The notes: generated by a model not told the origin, from the letters alone. A stretch of DNA of 64,000 nucleotides from an uncultured Muribaculaceae bacterium (GCA_964609615.1 CAZSRL010000002.1:7933-71932), one strand, 5' to 3'. Counted from the first letter of the stretch, positions 10,213-21,191 are shown. Numbers and translations: made by a program.

Positions 10213-10752
10213 TTAGCTATTTTGTAACTGTTTATTTTTTATTTCATTATCATACTTTTTAATTGACATAATACTAAAAGTAATTTCAAAAACGTTTCCA
10301 AGAATACCTAAATACGCTCCTACATATAAATTATACAATATCCATAAACATGCAGATGCAAATATTAATATATATGTTACTTTAACATTTTGTTGCCATA
10401 TAGAATATACATATGCAAGCGTTATAACTATTGGAATTAATGTAATTAATCCATTATATGCTATAACCCCTACAAATAATACTAATGCAGAGAATATAAT
10501 TAAAATGTATTTGGGAGGTTGTTTATTATCTTTTACATATTCATAAGTTATAAAGCATCTAATGAATGAAAGACCATTCATTGCTGCCGCTGTAAATGCA
10601 ATTAATATAATATACTCAATACCATATAAAGCATTAGCTATCATTTGAAAAAAGACTATTTTTTTCATGTCAGATTGTTTTATTGAATATACCCAAACAA
10701 TTATTGCAAACAATGCAAATACTTGAGCAACAATATTAATACTTAAATTCAT
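10213..10752 (-). CDS. YgjV-like inner membrane protein
   Basis: 179 aa, 5 TM; similarity is by pattern only. Confidence 0.4.
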   Translation of the reverse strand: MNLSINIVAQVFALFAIIVWVYSIKQSDMKKIVFFQMIANALYGIEYIILIAFTAAAMNGLSFIRCFITYEYVKDNKQPPKYILIIFSALVLFVGVIAYNGLITLIPIVITLAYVYSIWQQNVKVTYILIFASACLWILYNLYVGAYLGILGNVFEITFSIMSIKKYDNEIKNKQLQNS

Positions 10753-10910
10753 ATGTTCCCCTCCAATTCAAAATATTATAACACTTATTATTTATTTTTA
10801 CAATTATCTTCTCTCGCCTTATTTATTATTTTTTTTATAAAAGAATTTTTTGATTTTGTATATTCTTTACGATTATTAGAAAAACATGTTGCAAGATTAT
10901 CTTTTAACGC

Positions 10911-11321
10911 TTAATATTCTTTTAAATCTTTTTCATTATTTCTCAAATAATCCCTAAATAAAATAGAATCTATGTATCTATCTCCATTTATTTCCATAAC
11001 ATGAATGAAATGAGTTCTATTATTTTCATCGCCTTTTGTTATAAATACTTCCCCATCTGTTGATTCTGCTTTCATAGAATAATCCTTATCGTTAATAAAA
11101 TTGTTTTTAATTTTATCAAAATCACTTAGTTTGTCTACACCAACAGCCATATCAATAATCGGTTTTGCACTTAATCCCTTTATTGATGTTGACCCGATGT
11201 GTTCAACAGATAATCAAACCTCTCCAAACTTATTTTCCAGTATTTCTTTCTCAAGTAAAAACATTTTTTCCCAATTAGAATTATATTTTTCTAATTTTAC
11301 TTTTCCATCTTTTAAACCCAT
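10911..11321 (-). pseudogene. grpB: GrpB/UPF0157 family protein interrupted by an in-frame TGA at codon 36
   Basis: ATG at 11321 with GGAGGAA RBS; MGLKDGKVKLEKYNSNWEKMFLLEKEILENKFGEV-TGA-LSVEHIGSTSIKGLSAKPIIDMAVGVD... in one frame; GrpB hallmark HIGSTS..AKPIID. Confidence 0.6.
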
Positions 11322-11395
11322 TAATTCCTCCTATTTCTTTCAGTTCATTATAACATAAAAAAACATATATCACTATATATGTTTATAATAATATT

Positions 11396-11469
11396 TGGCA
11401 GGGGTAGCAGGAATTGAACCCACATCAGCGGTTTTGGAGACCGTTATTCTACCATTAAACTATACCCCT
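11396..11469 (-). tRNA. tRNA-Trp (anticodon CCA)
   Basis: rc reads AGGGGTATAGTTTAATGGTAGAATAACGGTCTCCAAAACCG...TACCCCTGCCA; anticodon loop CTCCAAA. Confidence 0.85.
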
Positions 11470-11530
11470 AGAGCGCTAAAAGTATAACATATTTTTTTAA
11501 ATATGTAAATATAATTAACTAGGTGATTGT

Positions 11531-11950
11531 ATGATTATAAACTATAGTACAAAGGAATTAGATTTGCTTGCTAGAATTATGAGAGCTGAGGCACTTGCTG
11601 AAGGTAATCTTGGTATGCTTATGGTTGGTAACGTTGTTGTTAATAGAGCAATAGCTAATTGTTTAGATTTTAAAAATATAAGAACTGTATATGATGCAAT
11701 ATATCAAAAAAATCAATTTGTTGGAACATCATCTTCTTTATTTCAAAGTGCTTCTACAACAAAAGAAAAAGATCTTGCTAAAAGAGTACTTCGAGGAGAA
11801 TATTATTATCCGGCAACACATGCTTTATACTTTTATTCTCCGGGAAGTTCTTCTTGCAAGAGTACATGGTTTAATCAACCTTTTGCAGGAAAATATAAAA
11901 ACCATTGTTTTTATAAACCTAATCCCGGTGTATGTAATGAATTATATTAA
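11531..11950 (+). CDS. spore cortex-lytic / cell wall hydrolase, SleB/CwlJ family
   Basis: Hydrolase_2 motif LLARIMRAEALAEGNLGMLMVGNVVVNRA. Confidence 0.75.
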   Translation: MIINYSTKELDLLARIMRAEALAEGNLGMLMVGNVVVNRAIANCLDFKNIRTVYDAIYQKNQFVGTSSSLFQSASTTKEKDLAKRVLRGEYYYPATHALYFYSPGSSSCKSTWFNQPFAGKYKNHCFYKPNPGVCNELY

Positions 11951-13134
11951 TTATTGCTTAAATTATCAAAATATCCTTGAATAAATATAACTGGTGTTCC
12001 TTTATCTCCACTTCCACTTGTTAAATCACAAAGTGAACCAATTAAGTCTGTATATCTTCTTGGTGTAGTTCCTTGAGATAACATTTTACCTTTTAAATTG
12101 TTATCTTTCTTTTGTATTTCTTCTTTTATAGCATTTTTTAGCTCTTCTCCACTTAATTTAGAAAATTTATTATCTGATAGATATTTAAGTTTTATTTCGT
12201 TTGGTGTGCCTTCTAATCCCTTCGTATAAGCAGGACTAACAACTGGATCTGCAAGTTCCCATATTTTACCTATTGGGTCTTTAAATGCTCCATCTCCATA
12301 TATCATTACCTCAATATTTTTTCCAGTTAATTCTTTCATTCTACTTTGAACATTAATTACAATTTTTTCACCACTTTTTGGAAACAGTTTTAACTTTTCT
12401 TCAGTACTTTTATTTGAGCCAAGTAGTCCATATTTTGGGTTAAATCCACTTTCTCCAATTGGATGACTCATAATTTCAAACAATCCATATATTGTAGAAC
12501 AACCATTATCAATTAGTAATTGTTTTGTACTCATTCTAGTATGTATATCACAATTTAATACATCTTTAGTATATTTCAATACATCAACAGGATTATTCGT
12601 AAAGATAAACTCTACTTCACAATTTTCTTTTTCAATTAAATCTCTATAAAACTCAACCATATTAATACCAGTAAATGGATGAATATATGAAGAAAACTCT
12701 TTTTTATATTCATCTTCTGTTATTAAATCACCTAAAGTATGTTTACTATTTTTTAATGTTGTCTGATCTAAAATATCATTACCTACTTCATCTGATGGAA
12801 AAGATAATACCAATGTTATTTTTTTCATTCCTCTTGCTATACCTTTTAATATAAGTGAAAATCTATTTCTACTAAGTATAGGATATACTACTCCTATATT
12901 TTTACTTGGAAATTTATTTCTAACATCCTGTGCTATATCATCCACACTAACAAAATTCCCTTCGGATATTCCTACTACAGATTCTGTTATTGCAATAATA
13001 TCCTTATCTTTAAACTCAAACATTTCCTCTTTTGAGGCATTCATAATTGAATCAACAACAATACTTTCTAAATCATCATTTTCTTTTATTATTGGAGTTC
13101 TTATACCCCTAACTACGGTACCTACAGTTCTCAT
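11947..13134 (-). CDS. CofE-like (F420-0:gamma-glutamyl ligase family) protein
   Basis: N-terminal [16 protein letters not shown] pattern; 395 aa. Confidence 0.45.
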
Positions 13135-13219: not shown

Positions 13220-14272
13220 TTAACTAGGTACCTGCAACTTTTGACCAACACTTAACAATGTAGATGTTAAATTGTTAATTCTTTTTAAAGTATCGACTGT
13301 TGTGTTATATTTATTTGCTATTTTCCAAAGACTATCTCCACTTTGTACTTTATATACTAAATAATCACTTGGTGGAGTAATATCTTTTTCAGATACCTTT
13401 AAAACATCTCCTATTTGTATTATATTACTCTTTAAATTATTTAAACTTTTTAATTTTTCAACTGTTAAGCCAAACTTATTTGCTATTTTCCAAAGACTAT
13501 CTCCACTTTGTACTTTATATACTAAATAATCACTTGGTGGAGTAATATCTTTTTCAGATACCTTTAAAACATCTCCTATTTGTATTATATTACTCTTTAA
13601 ATTATTTAAACTTTTTAATTTTTCAACTGTTAAGCCAAACTTATTTGCTATTTTCCAAAGACTATCACCTTTAACAACAGTATAATAATTAACCTTATCA
13701 ACAGGAATATAAGTAATACCTGCATAATTTGAAACTGCTTTAACTACTGCTTCAGTTAATTGTTCATAATTATTTTTTAATTGAGTAACATCATCAGAAG
13801 TACTATCTAAAAAACCATATTCAACTATTATTGATTCCGTATTAGGCGTGTCTCTTAACATAAAATAATAATCTTTACTAGGATCACTTGGTAAACGCAA
13901 TTGATAATTCTTGCGTGTGTTTTGTCCACTGTTTTCTAACTCAGAAAGTATTTTATCTGATAAATCACTAGTATTTCTCAATGCATATATTACTTCAGCA
14001 CCATCACCACCACCTGCGTTTATATGATTAGATATTACAATAATATCTTTTGTGTTTCCAAAAAAATCTAGAACTTTTTTTACACGTGCACTTGGTTCAA
14101 TCGTACTATCATCATCTCTTGTGAGTGCTACAGGGACTCCTAGTTCTCTAAATCTATTATACATATACTTACTTATTTTTAAATTTAAGTCTTTTTCTAT
14201 TATATCGTTGGCATTTGCCCCAGGATCACTACCACCATGACCCGCATCAATTACAATTCCTTTTATAGCCAT
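13220..14272 (-). CDS. N-acetylmuramoyl-L-alanine amidase (Amidase_3) with three LysM repeats, no signal peptide (CwlC-like mother-cell lysin)
   Basis: GIVIDAGHGGSDPGA amidase_3 motif; three YxVxxGDSLWKIANK LysM units. Confidence 0.85.
   Translation of the reverse strand: MAIKGIVIDAGHGGSDPGANANDIIEKDLNLKISKYMYNRFRELGVPVALTRDDDSTIEPSARVKKVLDFFGNTKDIIVISNHINAGGGDGAEVIYALRNTSDLSDKILSELENSGQNTRKNYQLRLPSDPSKDYYFMLRDTPNTESIIVEYGFLDSTSDDVTQLKNNYEQLTEAVVKAVSNYAGITYIPVDKVNYYTVVKGDSLWKIANKFGLTVEKLKSLNNLKSNIIQIGDVLKVSEKDITPPSDYLVYKVQSGDSLWKIANKFGLTVEKLKSLNNLKSNIIQIGDVLKVSEKDITPPSDYLVYKVQSGDSLWKIANKYNTTVDTLKRINNLTSTLLSVGQKLQVPS
13297..13650. repeat. perfect tandem repeat, about 165 bp x 2.2, encoding duplicated LysM unit
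   Basis: Identical DNA blocks starting at about 13313 and about 13478; protein repeat DYLVYKVQSGDSLWKIANKFGLTVEKLKSLNNLKSNIIQIGDVLKVSEKDITPPS occurs twice exactly. Confidence 0.8.
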
Positions 14273-14317: not shown

Positions 14318-14350
14318 TTTAAAAAAATTAGTTATTTCTAACTAATTTCT
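14318..14350 (-). terminator. rho-independent terminator
   Basis: ATTAGTTA-gaaa-TAACTAAT plus T7 on minus strand. Confidence 0.6.
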
Positions 14351-16165
14351 TTTTTGTCTTCTCCTTGTGTAGGCTACTCCAGCAGCTCCCAAAGCACCAA
14401 TTCCTAATCCAGCATAAGCCAAAGTCAAATTTTCTTCATCTCCTGTTTTTACTGAATCAAGTTCTTCTTCATATTTTTTTTCTAGTTCATCTTTCTTTTG
14501 CATTTCTATTATTGCATAGTATTTTGTACCTCTTATGTTTTTGATAAGATATCCAGTTAAATTATATTTTAATGATTCAATAATTTTTTCTTCTTCAAAA
14601 TATCCTTCCAATATAAATTCTTTATCTCTTTCAAATTTTTCTTTTGATATTGAATAACCATATGTGATTTCTTCTTTGTATTGTTTTTCTAATATTTCTG
14701 ATAAAACTTTATATTTAGGATCATATAAATCAATTGATTTATTTCCTGTTAAATCATATTTTTTAACTTTCTTTTCAATTTCTTTATATTCTTTTTCCAT
14801 TGTCCCATAATTTAAATGTGATATTCTATCTTTGTCACATTTCATAGTAATAGCGTCTCCATCTATACTTATATCATAGCTACCCCATTGATTTCCAATA
14901 CTTGATAGATCATGAGTACCTGCTCCTGAGATAAATTTAAATGTAAAGTTACTGCTTACTGAAGGATCATATGATCCATTTAACCATGAATTTATAAATG
15001 ATGATTGTTGTGTTTCACTTAGTGCACCTTCAGTCCATATAACAACTGTTCCACTTGCTTGTTTTATCATTATATAATTTGCTTTAACAGAAAATGAATT
15101 ATTACTATCTAATTTGTTTGAATTATTTACAATTACATTTCCTGTTTCAACTTTTTCATATTCAATTACTTCTTTTTCTGTGACATTTGTGTCCGAAACA
15201 GTATATCCTTCTGACTTTAATTGTTCTATAAAATCATTTGCTTCTTTTTCACTATCAAATGTTTTACTTATTGCTTCGGTATTTGTTTCTTTAAACACTT
15301 GTTCTTCCGTCGGACCAGTTATAGTTACTGTAATATTTTCATTTTCTAGCAATTTTAAATTTGTAATATATGCATTTGCTTCTTCTAAAGTATCAAATGT
15401 TTTACTTTCGTTTGTTTTTTTATCTTCTATTTGTATTTTTTCTGTATTAGAAGTTTTTGTAATATCCACTTCATATCTCACTGTATCTGTGTTGTTACTT
15501 TCTATATCTGATTTAATTTGTTCTATTTTTGCATTTATTTGTTCTTCAGTTAAACCTGTTTCTTCTGCAACTTGTTCAGTGCCTTTGCTTTCCCATTCAG
15601 TATAACTTACAGATTCGGTTACATTAAAGTTTGTTTTATCTTTGTTTGCATCAACAAATTCATTTTTTTCCTCTTCTGTATCAAATGTTTCTTTTATTTC
15701 AACTCTTTCTGTTACTTTTTTTTCTTCTTTTCTTTCAGTTATTTTTAATGAGGAAGATTCGATATCAGATTTTTCTAATTCTGATTTTCTATCAATTGCC
15801 TCTTGTTCCGTATCAAATGATTCATTAATTTCCGTTTTTTCTGTGCTAATAATTTGATTTTGCTTTTCGATAATTTTTTTGTTTGTAACATCATAATTAT
15901 CCTTTTTATTTTTTTCCTTTTCGCTAAGCCAATTTTCTGCATCTTTCTTTTGTTCAAAGTCCTCTGAAACTTCTTTAATAGTTTCATTTTTTTCTTGTTC
16001 AGCAGTTGTTGTTGGTTTTTCATTAGCATAGCTATATATTGCCTCCCCAGATTGAAGCCCTCCATATCCAGCAGCAACCATTGCAGCAATTGTAACTGGT
16101 GCTAATTTCTTTTTAAAGTTTTTTTCTAAGTATGATTTTAATTCAATTAATTGTTCTTTTGTCAT
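14342..16165 (-). CDS. acidic repetitive protein with N- and C-terminal hydrophobic anchors (607 aa)
   Basis: Repeated TFD(T/S)EEEAN..I motif at least 4 times; C-terminus LAYAGLGIGALGAAGVAYTRRRQKRN; no LPXTG. Confidence 0.5.
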   Translation of the reverse strand: MTKEQLIELKSYLEKNFKKKLAPVTIAAMVAAGYGGLQSGEAIYSYANEKPTTTAEQEKNETIKEVSEDFEQKKDAENWLSEKEKNKKDNYDVTNKKIIEKQNQIISTEKTEINESFDTEQEAIDRKSELEKSDIESSSLKITERKEEKKVTERVEIKETFDTEEEKNEFVDANKDKTNFNVTESVSYTEWESKGTEQVAEETGLTEEQINAKIEQIKSDIESNNTDTVRYEVDITKTSNTEKIQIEDKKTNESKTFDTLEEANAYITNLKLLENENITVTITGPTEEQVFKETNTEAISKTFDSEKEANDFIEQLKSEGYTVSDTNVTEKEVIEYEKVETGNVIVNNSNKLDSNNSFSVKANYIMIKQASGTVVIWTEGALSETQQSSFINSWLNGSYDPSVSSNFTFKFISGAGTHDLSSIGNQWGSYDISIDGDAITMKCDKDRISHLNYGTMEKEYKEIEKKVKKYDLTGNKSIDLYDPKYKVLSEILEKQYKEEITYGYSISKEKFERDKEFILEGYFEEEKIIESLKYNLTGYLIKNIRGTKYYAIIEMQKKDELEKKYEEELDSVKTGDEENLTLAYAGLGIGALGAAGVAYTRRRQKRN

Positions 16166-16309: not shown

Positions 16310-17392
16310 TTAATTTTCTCTTGAAATTAATTTAACTTTAATTTCCTTTTCTTTCCCATTTCTTTTTACTGTTACAGTAATTTGTTCACCAGGATCATTT
16401 TCATACAAATAATATCTGAATTTTGCTACACTTTTTATTTCATTATCATTTATTTTTATAATAATATCTCCTTGTTGAATTCCAGCATCACCTGCAGGTG
16501 AATTCTTTTCTACTTGAACAACTACTGCACCTTCACTCTCTATGGAAGAGAATTCGTTGCTAAAAATTGTACTTTTTACTTGATTTGTATTAACTGTTTG
16601 AAGCCCGATATATGGCCTTTCTACTTTCTTGTTTTTCTCTATTTGAGAAGCGTAACTTATTGCATCTTCAATAGGTATAGCAAATCCTAAACCTTCTGTT
16701 TCTGTTTTTACTATTTTCATTGATGTCACTCCAATTACTTCTCCGTTAATATTACAAAGAGGTCCACCACTGTTTCCAGGATTTATTGCCGCATCTGTCT
16801 GCATTACATTCATAATCCAATCCGATGCGCCACTATTTGAAAGCGACACATCAACAAGTCTATCTTTTCCACTAAGAATTCCTTTAGTAACCGTCCCTTT
16901 ATAATCTATTCCCATTGGAGCACCTATAGCAAATACGGTATCTCCAACATTCATTTTTGAATTATTTCCAATTGATACAATTTTCTTGATTGTATTCAAG
17001 TCTACAGTAAGAACGGCAATATCGCTGTATTCATCTCCACCCAAATATTTAGCTGTTGTGCTAGTATCATCAGAAAAAGTAATTTTTATATTGTTTGCTC
17101 CATCAACTACATGGTAATTTGTGATAATATAGGCACTTTTTTCTCCTTTTTTATATACAAAACCTGTCCCTATTGAAGCAGAATCACTTCCAGTTGATGT
17201 GACATAAACAACAGCGTCATACACTTTTTTAACTGATTTACTTATACCCGTATCATTAACAGTAACATCTTCTTTTTTTACACTATGTACAATGTATGTT
17301 GGGAAATAATATATTATTCCATACATAAAAGCACAACCAATAAATATACTAAAAATAATTGTTAAAATTGCCCCTAGTTTATTCTTTTTCAT
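16310..17392 (-). CDS. htrA: HtrA/DegP-family serine protease with PDZ domain
   Basis: Catalytic triad context NYHVV...DIAVL...GNSGGPL; C-terminal PDZ; N-terminal TM anchor. Confidence 0.9.
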   Translation of the reverse strand: MKKNKLGAILTIIFSIFIGCAFMYGIIYYFPTYIVHSVKKEDVTVNDTGISKSVKKVYDAVVYVTSTGSDSASIGTGFVYKKGEKSAYIITNYHVVDGANNIKITFSDDTSTTAKYLGGDEYSDIAVLTVDLNTIKKIVSIGNNSKMNVGDTVFAIGAPMGIDYKGTVTKGILSGKDRLVDVSLSNSGASDWIMNVMQTDAAINPGNSGGPLCNINGEVIGVTSMKIVKTETEGLGFAIPIEDAISYASQIEKNKKVERPYIGLQTVNTNQVKSTIFSNEFSSIESEGAVVVQVEKNSPAGDAGIQQGDIIIKINDNEIKSVAKFRYYLYENDPGEQITVTVKRNGKEKEIKVKLISREN

Positions 17393-17406
17393 TTTTTCTC
17401 CTTTTT

Positions 17407-18345
17407 TTAAATATTTATAATGTTCCTATAGTTTTGTGGAAATCCCATTTGTTTTAACACTTTTTCTATTTTTATACTTTTTAATCTTGCTGAAAGAAAT
17501 TCAATTTCATAAATTATTTCACCCATCATTACTTTAAATTCTTCATCACTTAATACTTGTTTTAAAATTATAATTAAAGCAAAAATGTCACATTTTCCAT
17601 ATATATATTCTCCATTATTTTTTTCAATATTTAGTGTTCCGTGAATATATGAATCATCTATATATTTTTGTGTTCTGTGGTCATATAATATATCTTCATG
17701 AGCACATAAATTTCTATAATTAGCTAACATAGAATAATAAATTTCAAAATTTCTAGGTTCAATATTATAAGTACTAGCTATTTCATTTTGTTCATCCTCT
17801 TTTAATATAGTAAATAATTCACTCATTATACCGAAAGATAATACTTTTACAACTACCCAAAGAGGAATATATCCATAATTTGTTATATAATGGTTAGTCG
17901 CGGTATGTTGTGTAGCATTTATTCTAATTTGTCTTTTCATTTTTCTTATTAAATCATTTACTTGTCTTGCTTTTTCTCTTGATTGAACAAAATTAGAAGT
18001 TTTTAAATAATCTTTTTCTCTATAACCAAACTTTTTACTTAAAATATAACTACTAATTGACTTGTAATTGTTTTCTACTATAAGTAAATTTTTAAATATT
18101 ATATTTCTAAATTGTCTATCAAAAGAAAACAGTGAATATATTTCTTCAAAGGTTGTTCCATCTATAAATGTTCTAGAGTTATTATTTTTTAAAAACAAAT
18201 GCCTATATCCGTTTATAAAAAAGTAATTTTCTTTAAATAATATATTTTTAGTTTTGTCTAAATCGTTAATTATTAAACCTTTTTCTTTTAAAATTTCTAT
18301 TTGTTCATCTAAATTTTTAAATACTTTGTTTCTCACTACTATCAC
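17407..18345 (-). CDS. Abi2-family (AbiD/AbiF-like) abortive infection protein, HEPN Rx4H motif
   Basis: N-terminal DEQIEILKEKGLIINDLDKTKNILFKENYFFINGYRHLF signature of Pfam Abi_2; HEPN-like YRNLCAHED (R-x4-H). Confidence 0.75.
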   Translation of the reverse strand: MIVVRNKVFKNLDEQIEILKEKGLIINDLDKTKNILFKENYFFINGYRHLFLKNNNSRTFIDGTTFEEIYSLFSFDRQFRNIIFKNLLIVENNYKSISSYILSKKFGYREKDYLKTSNFVQSREKARQVNDLIRKMKRQIRINATQHTATNHYITNYGYIPLWVVVKVLSFGIMSELFTILKEDEQNEIASTYNIEPRNFEIYYSMLANYRNLCAHEDILYDHRTQKYIDDSYIHGTLNIEKNNGEYIYGKCDIFALIIILKQVLSDEEFKVMMGEIIYEIEFLSARLKSIKIEKVLKQMGFPQNYRNIINI

Positions 18346-18477
18346 CTATTATAGAATTATATCATATATTTTTATTTATTTTAAATTATAATTTATTTAT
18401 ATTTAAAAAAAAATAATGAACAATGGTGTGGAGAAAAGATTGTTATTGTAGTTGAAGGTGTTGTTACTAATAGTTTT

Positions 18478-18510
18478 TTTATAAAAGAAAAAGATTAGAA
18501 TAAATTCTAA
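18478..18510 (-). terminator. rho-independent terminator after rpsI
   Basis: AGATTAGAA-ttt-ATTCTAATCT plus T-run (minus strand). Confidence 0.65.
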
Positions 18511-18512
18511 TC

Positions 18513-18929
18513 TTATCTTTTACTAAATTGAGGTGCTTTACGCGCTTTTTTAAGACCGTATTTTTTACGTTCTTTATTTCTGGCATCTCTAGTTACCATA
18601 CCAGCTTTTTTAAGAAGTTTTCTATAACTTTCTTCGCTAGCTTCGTTACCTTCATCCATTTTAAGTAATGCTCTTGTTATTCCTAATCTAATAGCGCCTG
18701 TTTGGCCATTAAATCCTCCACCTTTAACAGAAATTTCAATATCTAATTTATTCATATTATCTGTTATTTCTAATGGTTGAATTAAATCCATTACTAATAT
18801 TTCATAAGGCATATATTCATGAACGTCATTTCCGTTTACTATAATATTTCCTTTACCAGGTTTAATTGTAACTCTTGCAACACTTTTTTTTCTTCTTCCA
18901 GTTGCATTAAATACTTTTTCTTTTGCCAT
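18513..18929 (-). CDS. rpsI: 30S ribosomal protein S9
   Basis: C-terminal ...[12 protein letters not shown]. Confidence 0.95.
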
Positions 18930-18938
18930 TATACCCTC

Positions 18939-19367
18939 CTACACTTCCAACTTTTCAGGTTTTTGAGCTTCTTGTTTGTGTTCAGCATTTTCATATACAA
19001 ACAATTTTGTGTACATACTTCTTCCAAGTCTATTGTGAGGAAGCATTCCTTTTACAGCTCTTTCAACCATTTCTACTGGATATTTTTCTTTCATAACTTT
19101 TGCAGTTCTTTCTCTTAATCCTCCTGGAAATCCACTGTGATTGTAATAAATCTTATTTTTTAATTTATTTCCAGTTAAATTAACTTTAGAAGCATTAATT
19201 ATTATTACATTGTCTCCACAATCAATGTGCGGTGTGTATTCAGCTTTGTGTTTTCCGCGTAATATGTGTGCTGCTTTAGTAGCAACTTTACCTAAAGTTT
19301 TACCTTCAGCATCAAGAATATACCACTTGCGTGTTACATCTTCTTTTCTTAACATAAATGTTTTCAT
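18939..19367 (-). CDS. rplM: 50S ribosomal protein L13
   Basis: [20 protein letters not shown]...; conserved rplM-rpsI pair. Confidence 0.95.
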
Positions 19368-19522: not shown

Positions 19523-19552
19523 AAAAAAAACTATTGTTTTAAATAGTTTTTA
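19523..19552. terminator. hairpin terminator
   Basis: A8-CTATTgttttaaATAGT-T5. Confidence 0.5.
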
Positions 19553-20698
19553 TTTATATATATACCCATCAACAGGTTTTAAATAATCTGAATTATTTGT
19601 TACTAATTCTAAGTTTTGATTCTTATAATCTACTTTATTTGAATTATATGAATCATAAAAGCCAAGTTCAGCTTTATATATTTCTCCTGTGTCTGTATCT
19701 ATTACTCTATCATATCCTAGTGTTGCATCACTGTTTTTTTGAGAAATAACGTCATATGTTGTTTGCCTTTCGCTCCATGCATTATTGTATGATTCATATG
19801 CCGCACTCATTTGTTTCATATTATTTAATATTGATTGTGTTTCAGCATTGTTTTGTTGTATTCCTTGTTGTACATATGAATCACTTAGTTTTAAACTTGA
19901 CAGAGCTTTTGCTAAATCCTTTTCTAAATATAAAAATTCATTCTCCGGAGCAAATATACCCATTACAGAATATGCCATCATAGGAACTGTATCAGCTCCC
20001 GATACATTATAAGACCCGGGTATCATAATACTTGCAGCAAATAATCCTTCATTAGTGGTTGTTCCACTACTTGTAAAATGCGCTCTTACCATTCCTTCGT
20101 TCGCAGCTGCAGATGATAACAGTGATTTATAGGGCAATTCTTCAATTATTTTAAAATTGTTTAATGCTGTAAAATTATATTCTTTTCCATATACACTAGC
20201 ATATTGTCTAATTTGAGGCCAAATAGTAAATAGTTGTTTTGCTGTAGCTGGATTTAATACTGGAGCATCTCCAAAATATTCATAGCCCATACCTGTTGTA
20301 ACTTTGGCAAACCCCGACATTAAATTCTTTGCTTTTTGACTCTTCATAAATGGCTCTAATTTTCCATAATAGAATATTTGATAATTTGGATTTACAGGAT
20401 CATATGCTTTAAAACCAAATGTTTCATATTTTCCAACAGTATCTATTTTCCATCCTTTAGGTAATGTCATTGTGAAATAACCCCCGTTATATTCCTCAAG
20501 TGTTAAACCAGGTTTCTCAGATTTTTTTATTGCTATTTCTTGCTTATTATTAAATAAATTGTGAGTTTTTGTATTAGTTTTCCCATCTTTCCCACATACT
20601 GTAAATAATGCCACTAGTAAAATAACAATAGCGGTAATTGATATTATTGCTATACTTTTTCCCTTTGAAGTTTTAATCCATAATTTTATTTTATTCAT
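19550..20698 (-). CDS. hypothetical lipoprotein (about 380 aa)
   Basis: Start placed at internal MNKIKLW; signal peptide plus lipobox-like LFTVC; no recognised domain. Confidence 0.5.
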   Translation of the reverse strand: MNKIKLWIKTSKGKSIAIISITAIVILLVALFTVCGKDGKTNTKTHNLFNNKQEIAIKKSEKPGLTLEEYNGGYFTMTLPKGWKIDTVGKYETFGFKAYDPVNPNYQIFYYGKLEPFMKSQKAKNLMSGFAKVTTGMGYEYFGDAPVLNPATAKQLFTIWPQIRQYASVYGKEYNFTALNNFKIIEELPYKSLLSSAAANEGMVRAHFTSSGTTTNEGLFAASIMIPGSYNVSGADTVPMMAYSVMGIFAPENEFLYLEKDLAKALSSLKLSDSYVQQGIQQNNAETQSILNNMKQMSAAYESYNNAWSERQTTYDVISQKNSDATLGYDRVIDTDTGEIYKAELGFYDSYNSNKVDYKNQNLELVTNNSDYLKPVDGYIYK

Positions 20699-21191
20699 TA
20701 TAATTATCTCCTTTATAATCAATTTCAATTTCTGATAAGTTTTCATTTCCTTTTATATAATATTGTCCATCATTTTCAGGTATTTTATTATCTTGAAATG
20801 AAAATGAAACACTATCTTCATCATTTGTAAATAAGTATGTTATTGTTGTTTGGGTTGAAGAAATATTATTCTTTCTCCCTGTTAACCTAATCTTAGACAA
20901 AGCATCAAATGTATCATTAATTGTTTTTTTATCATTTATTATTTTAGGTTCCTCTCCATAAGTACAATGATTTATGTAAATAGTAAGTTTTGGAGGATCA
21001 TTTTTATCATATTTGTTAGCCCAATTAACAACATTTTTCCCTTTGAATTCAAACAATGTTATGTTTTTTACATGAAAATCATACATTTTTGGTTTGTTAA
21101 GAACTATAATATAAATATAAAGAATAAAACCTATTATAATCGCCATAGCAACACTTACAACAATTAAATTAAAATATTTCTTGTCTTTCAC
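20691..21191 (-). CDS. hypothetical N-terminally anchored membrane protein (166 aa)
   Basis: One TM helix then a soluble domain; 8-nt overlap with the downstream lipoprotein gene. Confidence 0.5.
   Translation of the reverse strand: MKDKKYFNLIVVSVAMAIIIGFILYIYIIVLNKPKMYDFHVKNITLFEFKGKNVVNWANKYDKNDPPKLTIYINHCTYGEEPKIINDKKTINDTFDALSKIRLTGRKNNISSTQTTITYLFTNDEDSVSFSFQDNKIPENDGQYYIKGNENLSEIEIDYKGDNYNE

Follow-up and report, generated by a model that had tools for sequence, protein, structure and literature searches.

A conserved AbiD/F-family HEPN gene fixed in front of htrA, with a probable role in cellular RNA cleavage

We analyzed a 64,000-nucleotide (nt) stretch of DNA filed under an uncultured Muribaculaceae bacterium (GCA_964609615.1 CAZSRL010000002.1:7933-71932; hereafter "the window"). 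On its minus strand, at 17407..18336 and directly upstream of htrA, lies a gene of the AbiD/F (Abi_2) family of HEPN ribonucleases (RNases), here called abi. AbiD/F (Abi2) systems are counted among the most abundant prokaryotic anti-phage systems. Our data are probably best explained by a core AbiD/F RNase that became fixed together with htrA and whose role, cleavage of cellular RNA, is co-regulated with the envelope protease. An earlier note, made from the sequence alone, had described a lone Abi2 gene in an unusual defence arrangement, and had named universal conservation at this position, in a synteny comparison, as the observation that would speak against it. Such conservation was found in 77 of 77 related species representatives and, together with a rate of evolution like that of ribosomal proteins and the lack of an upstream RNA antitoxin, it led us to give up that description.

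Profile searches confirmed the note's assignment of the protein to the Abi2 family. The Pfam Abi_2 profile (PF07751) matched with 136.6 bits against a cut-off of 25.6 (E=1.5e-39, profile positions 2-184 of 184), the PADLOC AbiD model matched with E=1.5e-53 (profile positions 4-276 of 277), and PHROG 2158, "abortive infection resistance protein," matched at 2.6e-62; NCBIfam held no model for the protein. The HEPN motif that the note had pointed out, YRNLCAHED, is present in the translation, with the catalytic RNLCAH (Rx4H) encoded at 17698..17715 on the minus strand. Among 79 orthologs this motif reads RNLCAH in 76 and RNICAH in 2, with Rx4H kept in 78. It aligns with RNSCCH of PbAbiF and with RNQCAH (R202/H207) of Clostridioides difficile AbiF, in which mutation of R202/H207 abolishes toxicity (PMC12373285). 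The AlphaFold2 (AF2) model of the window protein had a pLDDT of 88.5 and a pTM of 0.84, and a Foldseek search with it against the PDB returned a sole significant match, 8vz6_A, the PbAbiF dimer bound to noncoding RNA (ncRNA) (E=4.9e-10, TM 0.73/0.77). By sequence, motif and fold alike, the window gene encodes a genuine AbiD/F-family (Abi_2) protein.

The note had placed a 312-amino acid (aa) protein at 17407-18345. A minus-strand open reading frame (ORF) of 312 aa, counted from GTG, does occupy 17407..18345, but the start codon is better placed three codons further in. The true start is probably GTG 18336, with a 309-aa product, because this codon lines up with the start of all orthologs in the alignment and GTG 18345 falls within the abi ribosome-binding site, AGGTGA (18347..18342, minus strand). 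This site lies 5 nt before GTG 18336 and has AGGTGA or AGGAGAG equivalents in the orthologs. A database protein of 309 aa (P0001) is 99% identical to the window protein. The exact 312-aa sequence had no record in the assembly index; the real protein probably has 309 aa, and sampling of the species is sparse.

A search with the Abi protein returned more than 8000 clusters, of which the best 120 were 61-78% identical and 308-335 aa long (most 309-313) and came from Tenericutes, Mycoplasmatota and Bacilli metagenome-assembled genomes (MAGs) and Candidatus (Ca.) Coprovivens. When the context of such Abi matches was looked up, htrA directly followed Abi_2 in three of three cases, with rplM-rpsI upstream and differing farther flanks, and no defence or mobile-element genes stood consistently beside abi. 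GTDB species representatives were also searched with the window HtrA alone, which avoids a bias toward Abi. At all 77 loci with an HtrA 42-55% identical to that of the window, tblastn found an Abi ortholog directly upstream on the same strand. These orthologs were 57-69% identical to the window protein and near full length, with the exception of one locus (L085; CP091739.1, a 1.53-Mb complete MAG chromosome) in which the abi, htrA and rplM matches were fragmented, most likely from long-read frameshift errors rather than because the genes are pseudogenes.

Orthologs of rpsI and rplM were found by tblastn upstream of abi in most related loci. The spacer between rpsI and abi measured 103-138 nt in 32 of the 66 species with rpsI on the contig, and the remaining species carried 0.27-5.5 kb of variable, mostly unrelated genes there (L001, L010-L023, L042-L084). 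Insertions concentrate at the rpsI-abi junction, which acts as a hotspot for them, and leave abi-htrA intact. In L001, the insert consists of Amidase_3, Macro, DUF5131 and Zn-dependent phospholipase C genes. A metagenome scan based on alignment to HtrA used generic protease motifs and so reached mostly distant HtrAs of other phyla; an Abi relative was present at 2 of 80 loci, both of which had the abi-htrA pair, and the more distant metagenome HtrAs (guanine-plus-cytosine (GC) content 37-41%) had no Abi upstream. Ca. Coprovivens belongs to the GTDB order RF39, family CAG-1000 (PMC8035907), and other genomes in our set bear names typical of an RF39-type clade (Clostridium sp. CAG:1000, CAG:628, CAG:524).

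The junction of the two genes is tight in the window and in its relatives. As the note had it, the genes are co-oriented and 14 nt apart: the abi stop TAA lies at 17409..17407, the htrA ATG at 17392, and the spacer (17393..17406, minus strand) holds the htrA ribosome-binding site AAGGAG at 17403..17398. A scan of the window found no terminator-like site between abi and htrA, and the co-transcription that the note had supposed appears likely. Across the loci compared, the distance from the Abi stop to the htrA start had a median of 9 nt, 79 of 80 values falling in the range from -17 to +28 nt, with the htrA ribosome-binding site positioned within or beside the abi stop, and the two genes are probably translationally coupled.

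The second gene of the predicted operon, htrA (16310..17392, minus strand), encodes a membrane-anchored HtrA/DegP-type serine protease by its Pfam and NCBIfam matches. It has Trypsin_2 (7.1e-29) and PDZ_2 (5.8e-22) domains and a hydrophobic N-terminal segment visible in the translation; the NCBIfam serine protease HtrA models aligned to it over their full length, with scores under the equivalog cut-offs. The catalytic residues H94, D124 and S208 (GNSGGP) were invariant across 15 orthologs. These data indicate that the window HtrA is a canonical membrane-anchored, extracytoplasmic Trypsin-PDZ protease.

We compared evolutionary rates in 59 species holding all four genes, using pairwise identity and an approximate NG86 estimate of the ratio of nonsynonymous to synonymous substitution rates (dN/dS), whose values are comparative only because dS is near saturation (~1). 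Mean pairwise identity and dN/dS were 0.72 and 0.19 for Abi, 0.57 and 0.35 for HtrA, 0.77 and 0.26 for RpsI, and 0.81 and 0.19 for RplM. Abi distances correlated with those of RpsI at r=0.93 and of RplM at r=0.91, the two ribosomal proteins correlating with each other at r=0.87, and 115 of the 312 Abi positions were at least 97% conserved. The rate of evolution of abi is about as low as that of a ribosomal protein gene, and Abi is more conserved than HtrA, as befits a vertically inherited gene under strong purifying selection. Abi_2 genes in general are patchy, turn over fast and vary within species (PMC12373285). The idea that abi is kept merely as a donor of a promoter for htrA was excluded by this selection on the protein itself, since the reading frame would otherwise decay. 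Because the conservation is uniform, a conserved cellular partner or substrate is favored over fast-changing phage triggers.

The abi-htrA pair has a predicted sigma-70 promoter of its own, judged by its match to the consensus and its conservation. This promoter-like site (18356..18385, minus strand) comprises a -35 element TTTAAA (18385..18380), an 18-nt spacer, TG at 18364..18363 and a -10 element TATAAT (18361..18356). In essentially all orthologous loci, the extended -10 (TGnTATAAT or TATACT) keeps the same distance to the ribosome-binding site, and the leader from promoter to ribosome-binding site is only ~20 nt long. Upstream of it, the rplM-rpsI operon (18513..19367, minus strand; rpsI 18513..18929, rplM 18939..19367 by their ORFs) lies outside the abi-htrA operon and ends in an intrinsic terminator-like hairpin with a T-run (18488..18513, minus strand; sequence and RNAfold). 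The hairpin is AT-rich and overlaps the final base of the rpsI stop; similar hairpins follow rpsI in 29 other species, and a weak Rfam match to a terminator-like small RNA covers 18473..18518. Heat-shock operators (CIRCE, CtsR box) were not evident by eye in the aligned abi promoters, and no formal search for them was run. In a subclade of the relatives (L009-L036, L073, L080), an element TTGTGAAA(A/T) is conserved ~40-45 nt upstream of the abi -10 box; it is too distant from the -10 to be a -35, could be a regulator binding site, and is absent from the window's own abi promoter.

The start codons of the Abi orthologs (loci L001-L084) were 38 ATG, 25 GTG and 13 TTG, and those of htrA mostly ATG. 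Starts of the GTG or TTG type in half of the Abi orthologs are compatible with selection for low Abi translation, and for this reason low-level Abi synthesis is probable.

AbiF works as a type III toxin-antitoxin system in which a cis-encoded upstream ncRNA (RF03085, AbiFr, RCd22) attaches to the dimer, blocking its active site (PMC12373285, PMC13064643, PMC12737573). We found no counterpart of this RNA. RF03085, the abiF motif, was absent around the gene (17300..18600) at E<=10, absent from the whole window at E<=0.5, where permissive scans gave only terminator-like noise, and absent from 11 ortholog loci at the gathering score. The positive control phiC2 was detected with 37.6 bits, 75 nt upstream of its abiF. 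A loose regular expression for the core of the motif was also tried and discarded: it gave 2-mismatch noise only, mostly in rpsI coding sequence, as opposed to two exact copies found in phiC2. The 103-138-nt spacers are fully taken by the terminator, promoter and ribosome-binding site and hold no further conserved element, and none was seen downstream of htrA in the related loci. This conserved layout of terminator, promoter, ribosome-binding site and start carries more weight than the missing motif: it fills the spacer, there appears to be no room for a cis ncRNA of ~100 nt upstream of abi, and the predicted ~20-nt leader does not fit one.

An exhaustive search of 1.84 billion representatives at 50% identity placed the nearest relatives of the clade well outside it. 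A single full-length representative (57%, 389 bits) stood for the whole clade; beyond it, matches over the full length reached at most 42% identity and 220 bits, in a family of 5428 clusters. The nearest outgroups (P0126, P0298 and P0140) were 36-42% identical over their full length and came from low-GC Bacilli MAGs. Their Abi_2 genes (L089 5001-5954, L090 5001-5951 and L092 5001-5981) stand directly after prophage lysis genes (for CHAP/LysM, for ChW, or for Amidase_2 together with holin); noncoding DNA of 200-380 nt lies upstream of them, and htrA is lacking. The best plasmid and phage matches to the window protein were 31% identical. No signatures of the subfamily were found in IMG/VR with the patterns used, which limit this search.

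These observations suggest the following course of events. The abi gene would belong to the core genome of a deep clade of gut Bacilli (low-GC, genome-reduced, RF39-type) and be inherited vertically in it; an ancestor of this clade may have captured a phage-type AbiD/F toxin gene, together with its promoter, in front of htrA; the genes that follow prophage lysis genes are the probable source type. The cis RNA antitoxin would then have been lost and the protein retained with its RNase activity; like PbAbiF, it is presumably dimeric and has a composite active site. Abi is probably made at a low level and would be co-expressed with HtrA, the envelope quality-control protease. Its likeliest purpose would be stress-linked cleavage of cellular RNA, to shut down translation or turn over mRNA at times when the cell needs HtrA, which we favor over a strain-variable sensing of particular phages.

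Several points weigh against this account. All characterized members of the family are anti-phage toxins, and the RNase activity of the window protein, its likely co-transcription with htrA and its cellular role are each steps that we infer. RF03085 also went undetected beside the three outgroup genes of Abi_2 type located just behind prophage lysis genes; these outgroup genes may use a different RNA partner, and the absence of the motif is weaker evidence because it is not universal in the family. In this genome the look-up for antitoxins covered the 64-kb window, and an antitoxin, whether RNA or protein, could be encoded outside it. On one low-GC (24.8%) contig (L093, 2954-4138), an HtrA 49% identical to the window's has no Abi upstream; either the contig comes from a neighbouring lineage that lacks the pair, or this HtrA is a second paralog. 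The taxonomic breadth of the clade is drawn from MAG names and one documented RF39 member, and the near-saturation of dS given above also counts here. As a separate observation on L093, its htrA is preceded by ORFs of 391 aa and 455 aa, which by eye resemble an M14-type carboxypeptidase and a RelA/SpoT-like protein, respectively.

Among the alternatives, the one that survives best is that abi is a lineage-fixed abortive-infection gene, still an infection-activated AbiD/F toxin, whose place before htrA is a historical accident that supplies the htrA promoter. We regard this as possible, though not probable. The full-length homology to AbiD, AbiF and PHROG 2158 and the intact catalytic motif agree with it, every characterized relative is a defence toxin (PMC13064643), the nearest relatives follow prophage lysis genes, and the many GTG and TTG starts would be in keeping with a toxin under tight limits. 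However, defence genes are normally patchy and fast-evolving, and the Abi_2 family varies even within species (PMC12373285), whereas abi occupies one position in 77 of 77 species, surpasses HtrA in conservation and keeps clock-like pace with the ribosomal proteins. It also lacks a cis RNA antitoxin and, by the predicted layout, room for one, and defence or mobile genes are not consistently adjacent to it.

A bolder form of the cellular account is that a phage-derived HEPN toxin of the Cas13-ancestor type was domesticated without an antitoxin across a whole gut-bacterial order and is functionally coupled to HtrA, for example as a counterpart of Ire1-type regulated mRNA decay that would cut the translation of exported proteins under envelope folding stress; in this full form we consider it doubtful.

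It is less likely still that abi belongs to a cryptic type III toxin-antitoxin or addiction module, with an antitoxin RNA that is divergent from RF03085, acts in trans, or lies within the mRNA or the rplM-rpsI 3' end, and that the gene persists because loss of the gene or of its antitoxin is lethal. AbiF toxins are neutralized by ncRNA, the structural match 8vz6 is itself an RNA complex, and some bona fide phage-type Abi_2 genes go without a detectable RF03085, which makes other RNA partners probable. Against this, addiction does not account for purifying selection on the whole protein or for the coupling to htrA, and neither the 103-138-nt spacers nor the DNA downstream of htrA offers an extra conserved element.

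We think it very improbable that Abi is a cis-acting RNase of its own operon, processing the abi-htrA transcript or a few transcripts and thereby tuning HtrA synthesis. The invariant linkage and the very tight spacing would suit such a function, and the HEPN sites of Cas13an and AbiF can process their own associated RNAs (PMC12165695, PMC12737573), but neither the junction nor the leader showed a conserved RNA sequence or structure, and a 309-aa, 72%-conserved enzyme would be a costly means of regulating one gene. The earlier note's reading, a lone accessory Abi2 gene recently inserted beside htrA and possibly part of a new RNase-plus-protease defence system, is hardly credible, as family membership and a weak match of the HtrA trypsin domain to proteases of some PADLOC candidate systems are outweighed by the same position in all related species, the lack of close phage or plasmid copies, a canonical HtrA with a conserved triad, and a GC content and flanks that are not island-like.

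The window gene can be set beside known systems. AbiD/F proteins are HEPN RNases, with Abi2 and Swt1 grouped together (PMC3710099), and Cas13 has been proposed to descend from this family (PMC12165695). With the AbiF systems (PbAbiF, PDB 8VZ6; the C. difficile prophage AbiF with RCd22), the window protein shares the Abi_2 family, the fold, the Rx4H motif and a length of ~290-310 aa. It differs from them in being only 20-26% identical and without an upstream RF03085, and its gene lies outside any prophage or mobile element, is syntenic over a deep clade and is operonic with htrA. [quoted passage not shown] Whereas the genes of lactococci are carried on plasmids, vary between strains and need a conserved upstream RNA-encoding sequence (PMC13064643), the window gene is chromosomal and core, with a ~20-nt leader. 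The post-lysis Abi_2 genes (P0126, P0298, P0140) are the closest outside the clade and come from hosts of similar GC content but, unlike the window gene, stand without htrA. Eukaryotic HEPN RNases (the Ire1/RNase L KEN domain, Swt1, Las1) provide precedents in which nucleases of conflict systems were recruited to cellular RNA processing or stress responses (PMC3710099); their relation to the window protein is at the level of the superfamily, and the likeness is one of evolutionary logic, not of membership. In a broad survey, the sole remark of related kind is that "posttranslational modification" genes lie downstream of some abi_2 genes (PMC12373285). The protein family itself is known; for an AbiD/F clade that belongs to the core genome at the level of an order, is coupled to htrA and has no cis ncRNA, we found no report in the literature.

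The wider neighbourhood agrees with what the note had said of a non-island setting beside rplM-rpsI. In order of transcription on the minus strand, a gene with a PTAC domain, two ABC ATPase genes and a membrane protein gene (an ecf-like transporter cluster) are followed by truA, two unmatched ORFs, rplM, rpsI, abi, htrA, the gene for a 607-aa repeat protein and an Amidase_3-LysM gene. The annotation of this neighbourhood revealed no integrase or other defence gene near abi, its neighbours are housekeeping genes, and neither GC content (~22% for abi versus 25% for the whole window) nor the flanks gave signs of an island. At the gathering threshold, Rfam found only two tRNAs and the signal recognition particle (SRP) RNA in the window.

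Further features were noted around the pair. The two unmatched ORFs (19550-21191, minus strand; 398 aa and 166 aa) have N-terminal hydrophobic segments and no Pfam or PHROG match, and they interrupt an otherwise conserved ecf-like-truA-rplM-rpsI cluster; in L004, the closest relative with a long contig, rplM directly follows truA. L004 also carries, ~2 kb downstream of htrA (10219-12718), a DpnII-type restriction-modification cluster of two methyltransferases and a DpnII endonuclease, which has no counterpart at that place in the window. Between htrA and the amidase gene, 14342-16165 (minus strand) encodes the 607-aa protein, which is acidic, with recurring FDTE/FDSE...EA... repeats, a C-terminal hydrophobic segment and a basic tail; it had no Pfam or PHROG match and no tblastn counterpart in 88 related loci, and looks like lineage-specific surface protein cargo. 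The gene for the Amidase_3 and LysM cell-wall hydrolase (ORF 13220-14272, minus strand) contains a tandem duplication of 165 bp (13311-13666; 2.2 copies, 100% identity) that is perfect and copies one LysM module exactly, which suggests a very recent expansion.

If our account of abi is true, AbiD models of the PADLOC type score one "defence system" per genome of this abundant, uncultured clade of the human and animal gut, and defence counts in gut MAGs would be inflated by something that is maybe not accessory immunity. The account also raises the question of how an AbiF-type RNase stays harmless without its ncRNA and what it cleaves. The gene would then be a bacterial example of a type III toxin RNase exapted to a cellular function, as HEPN nucleases have been in eukaryotes.

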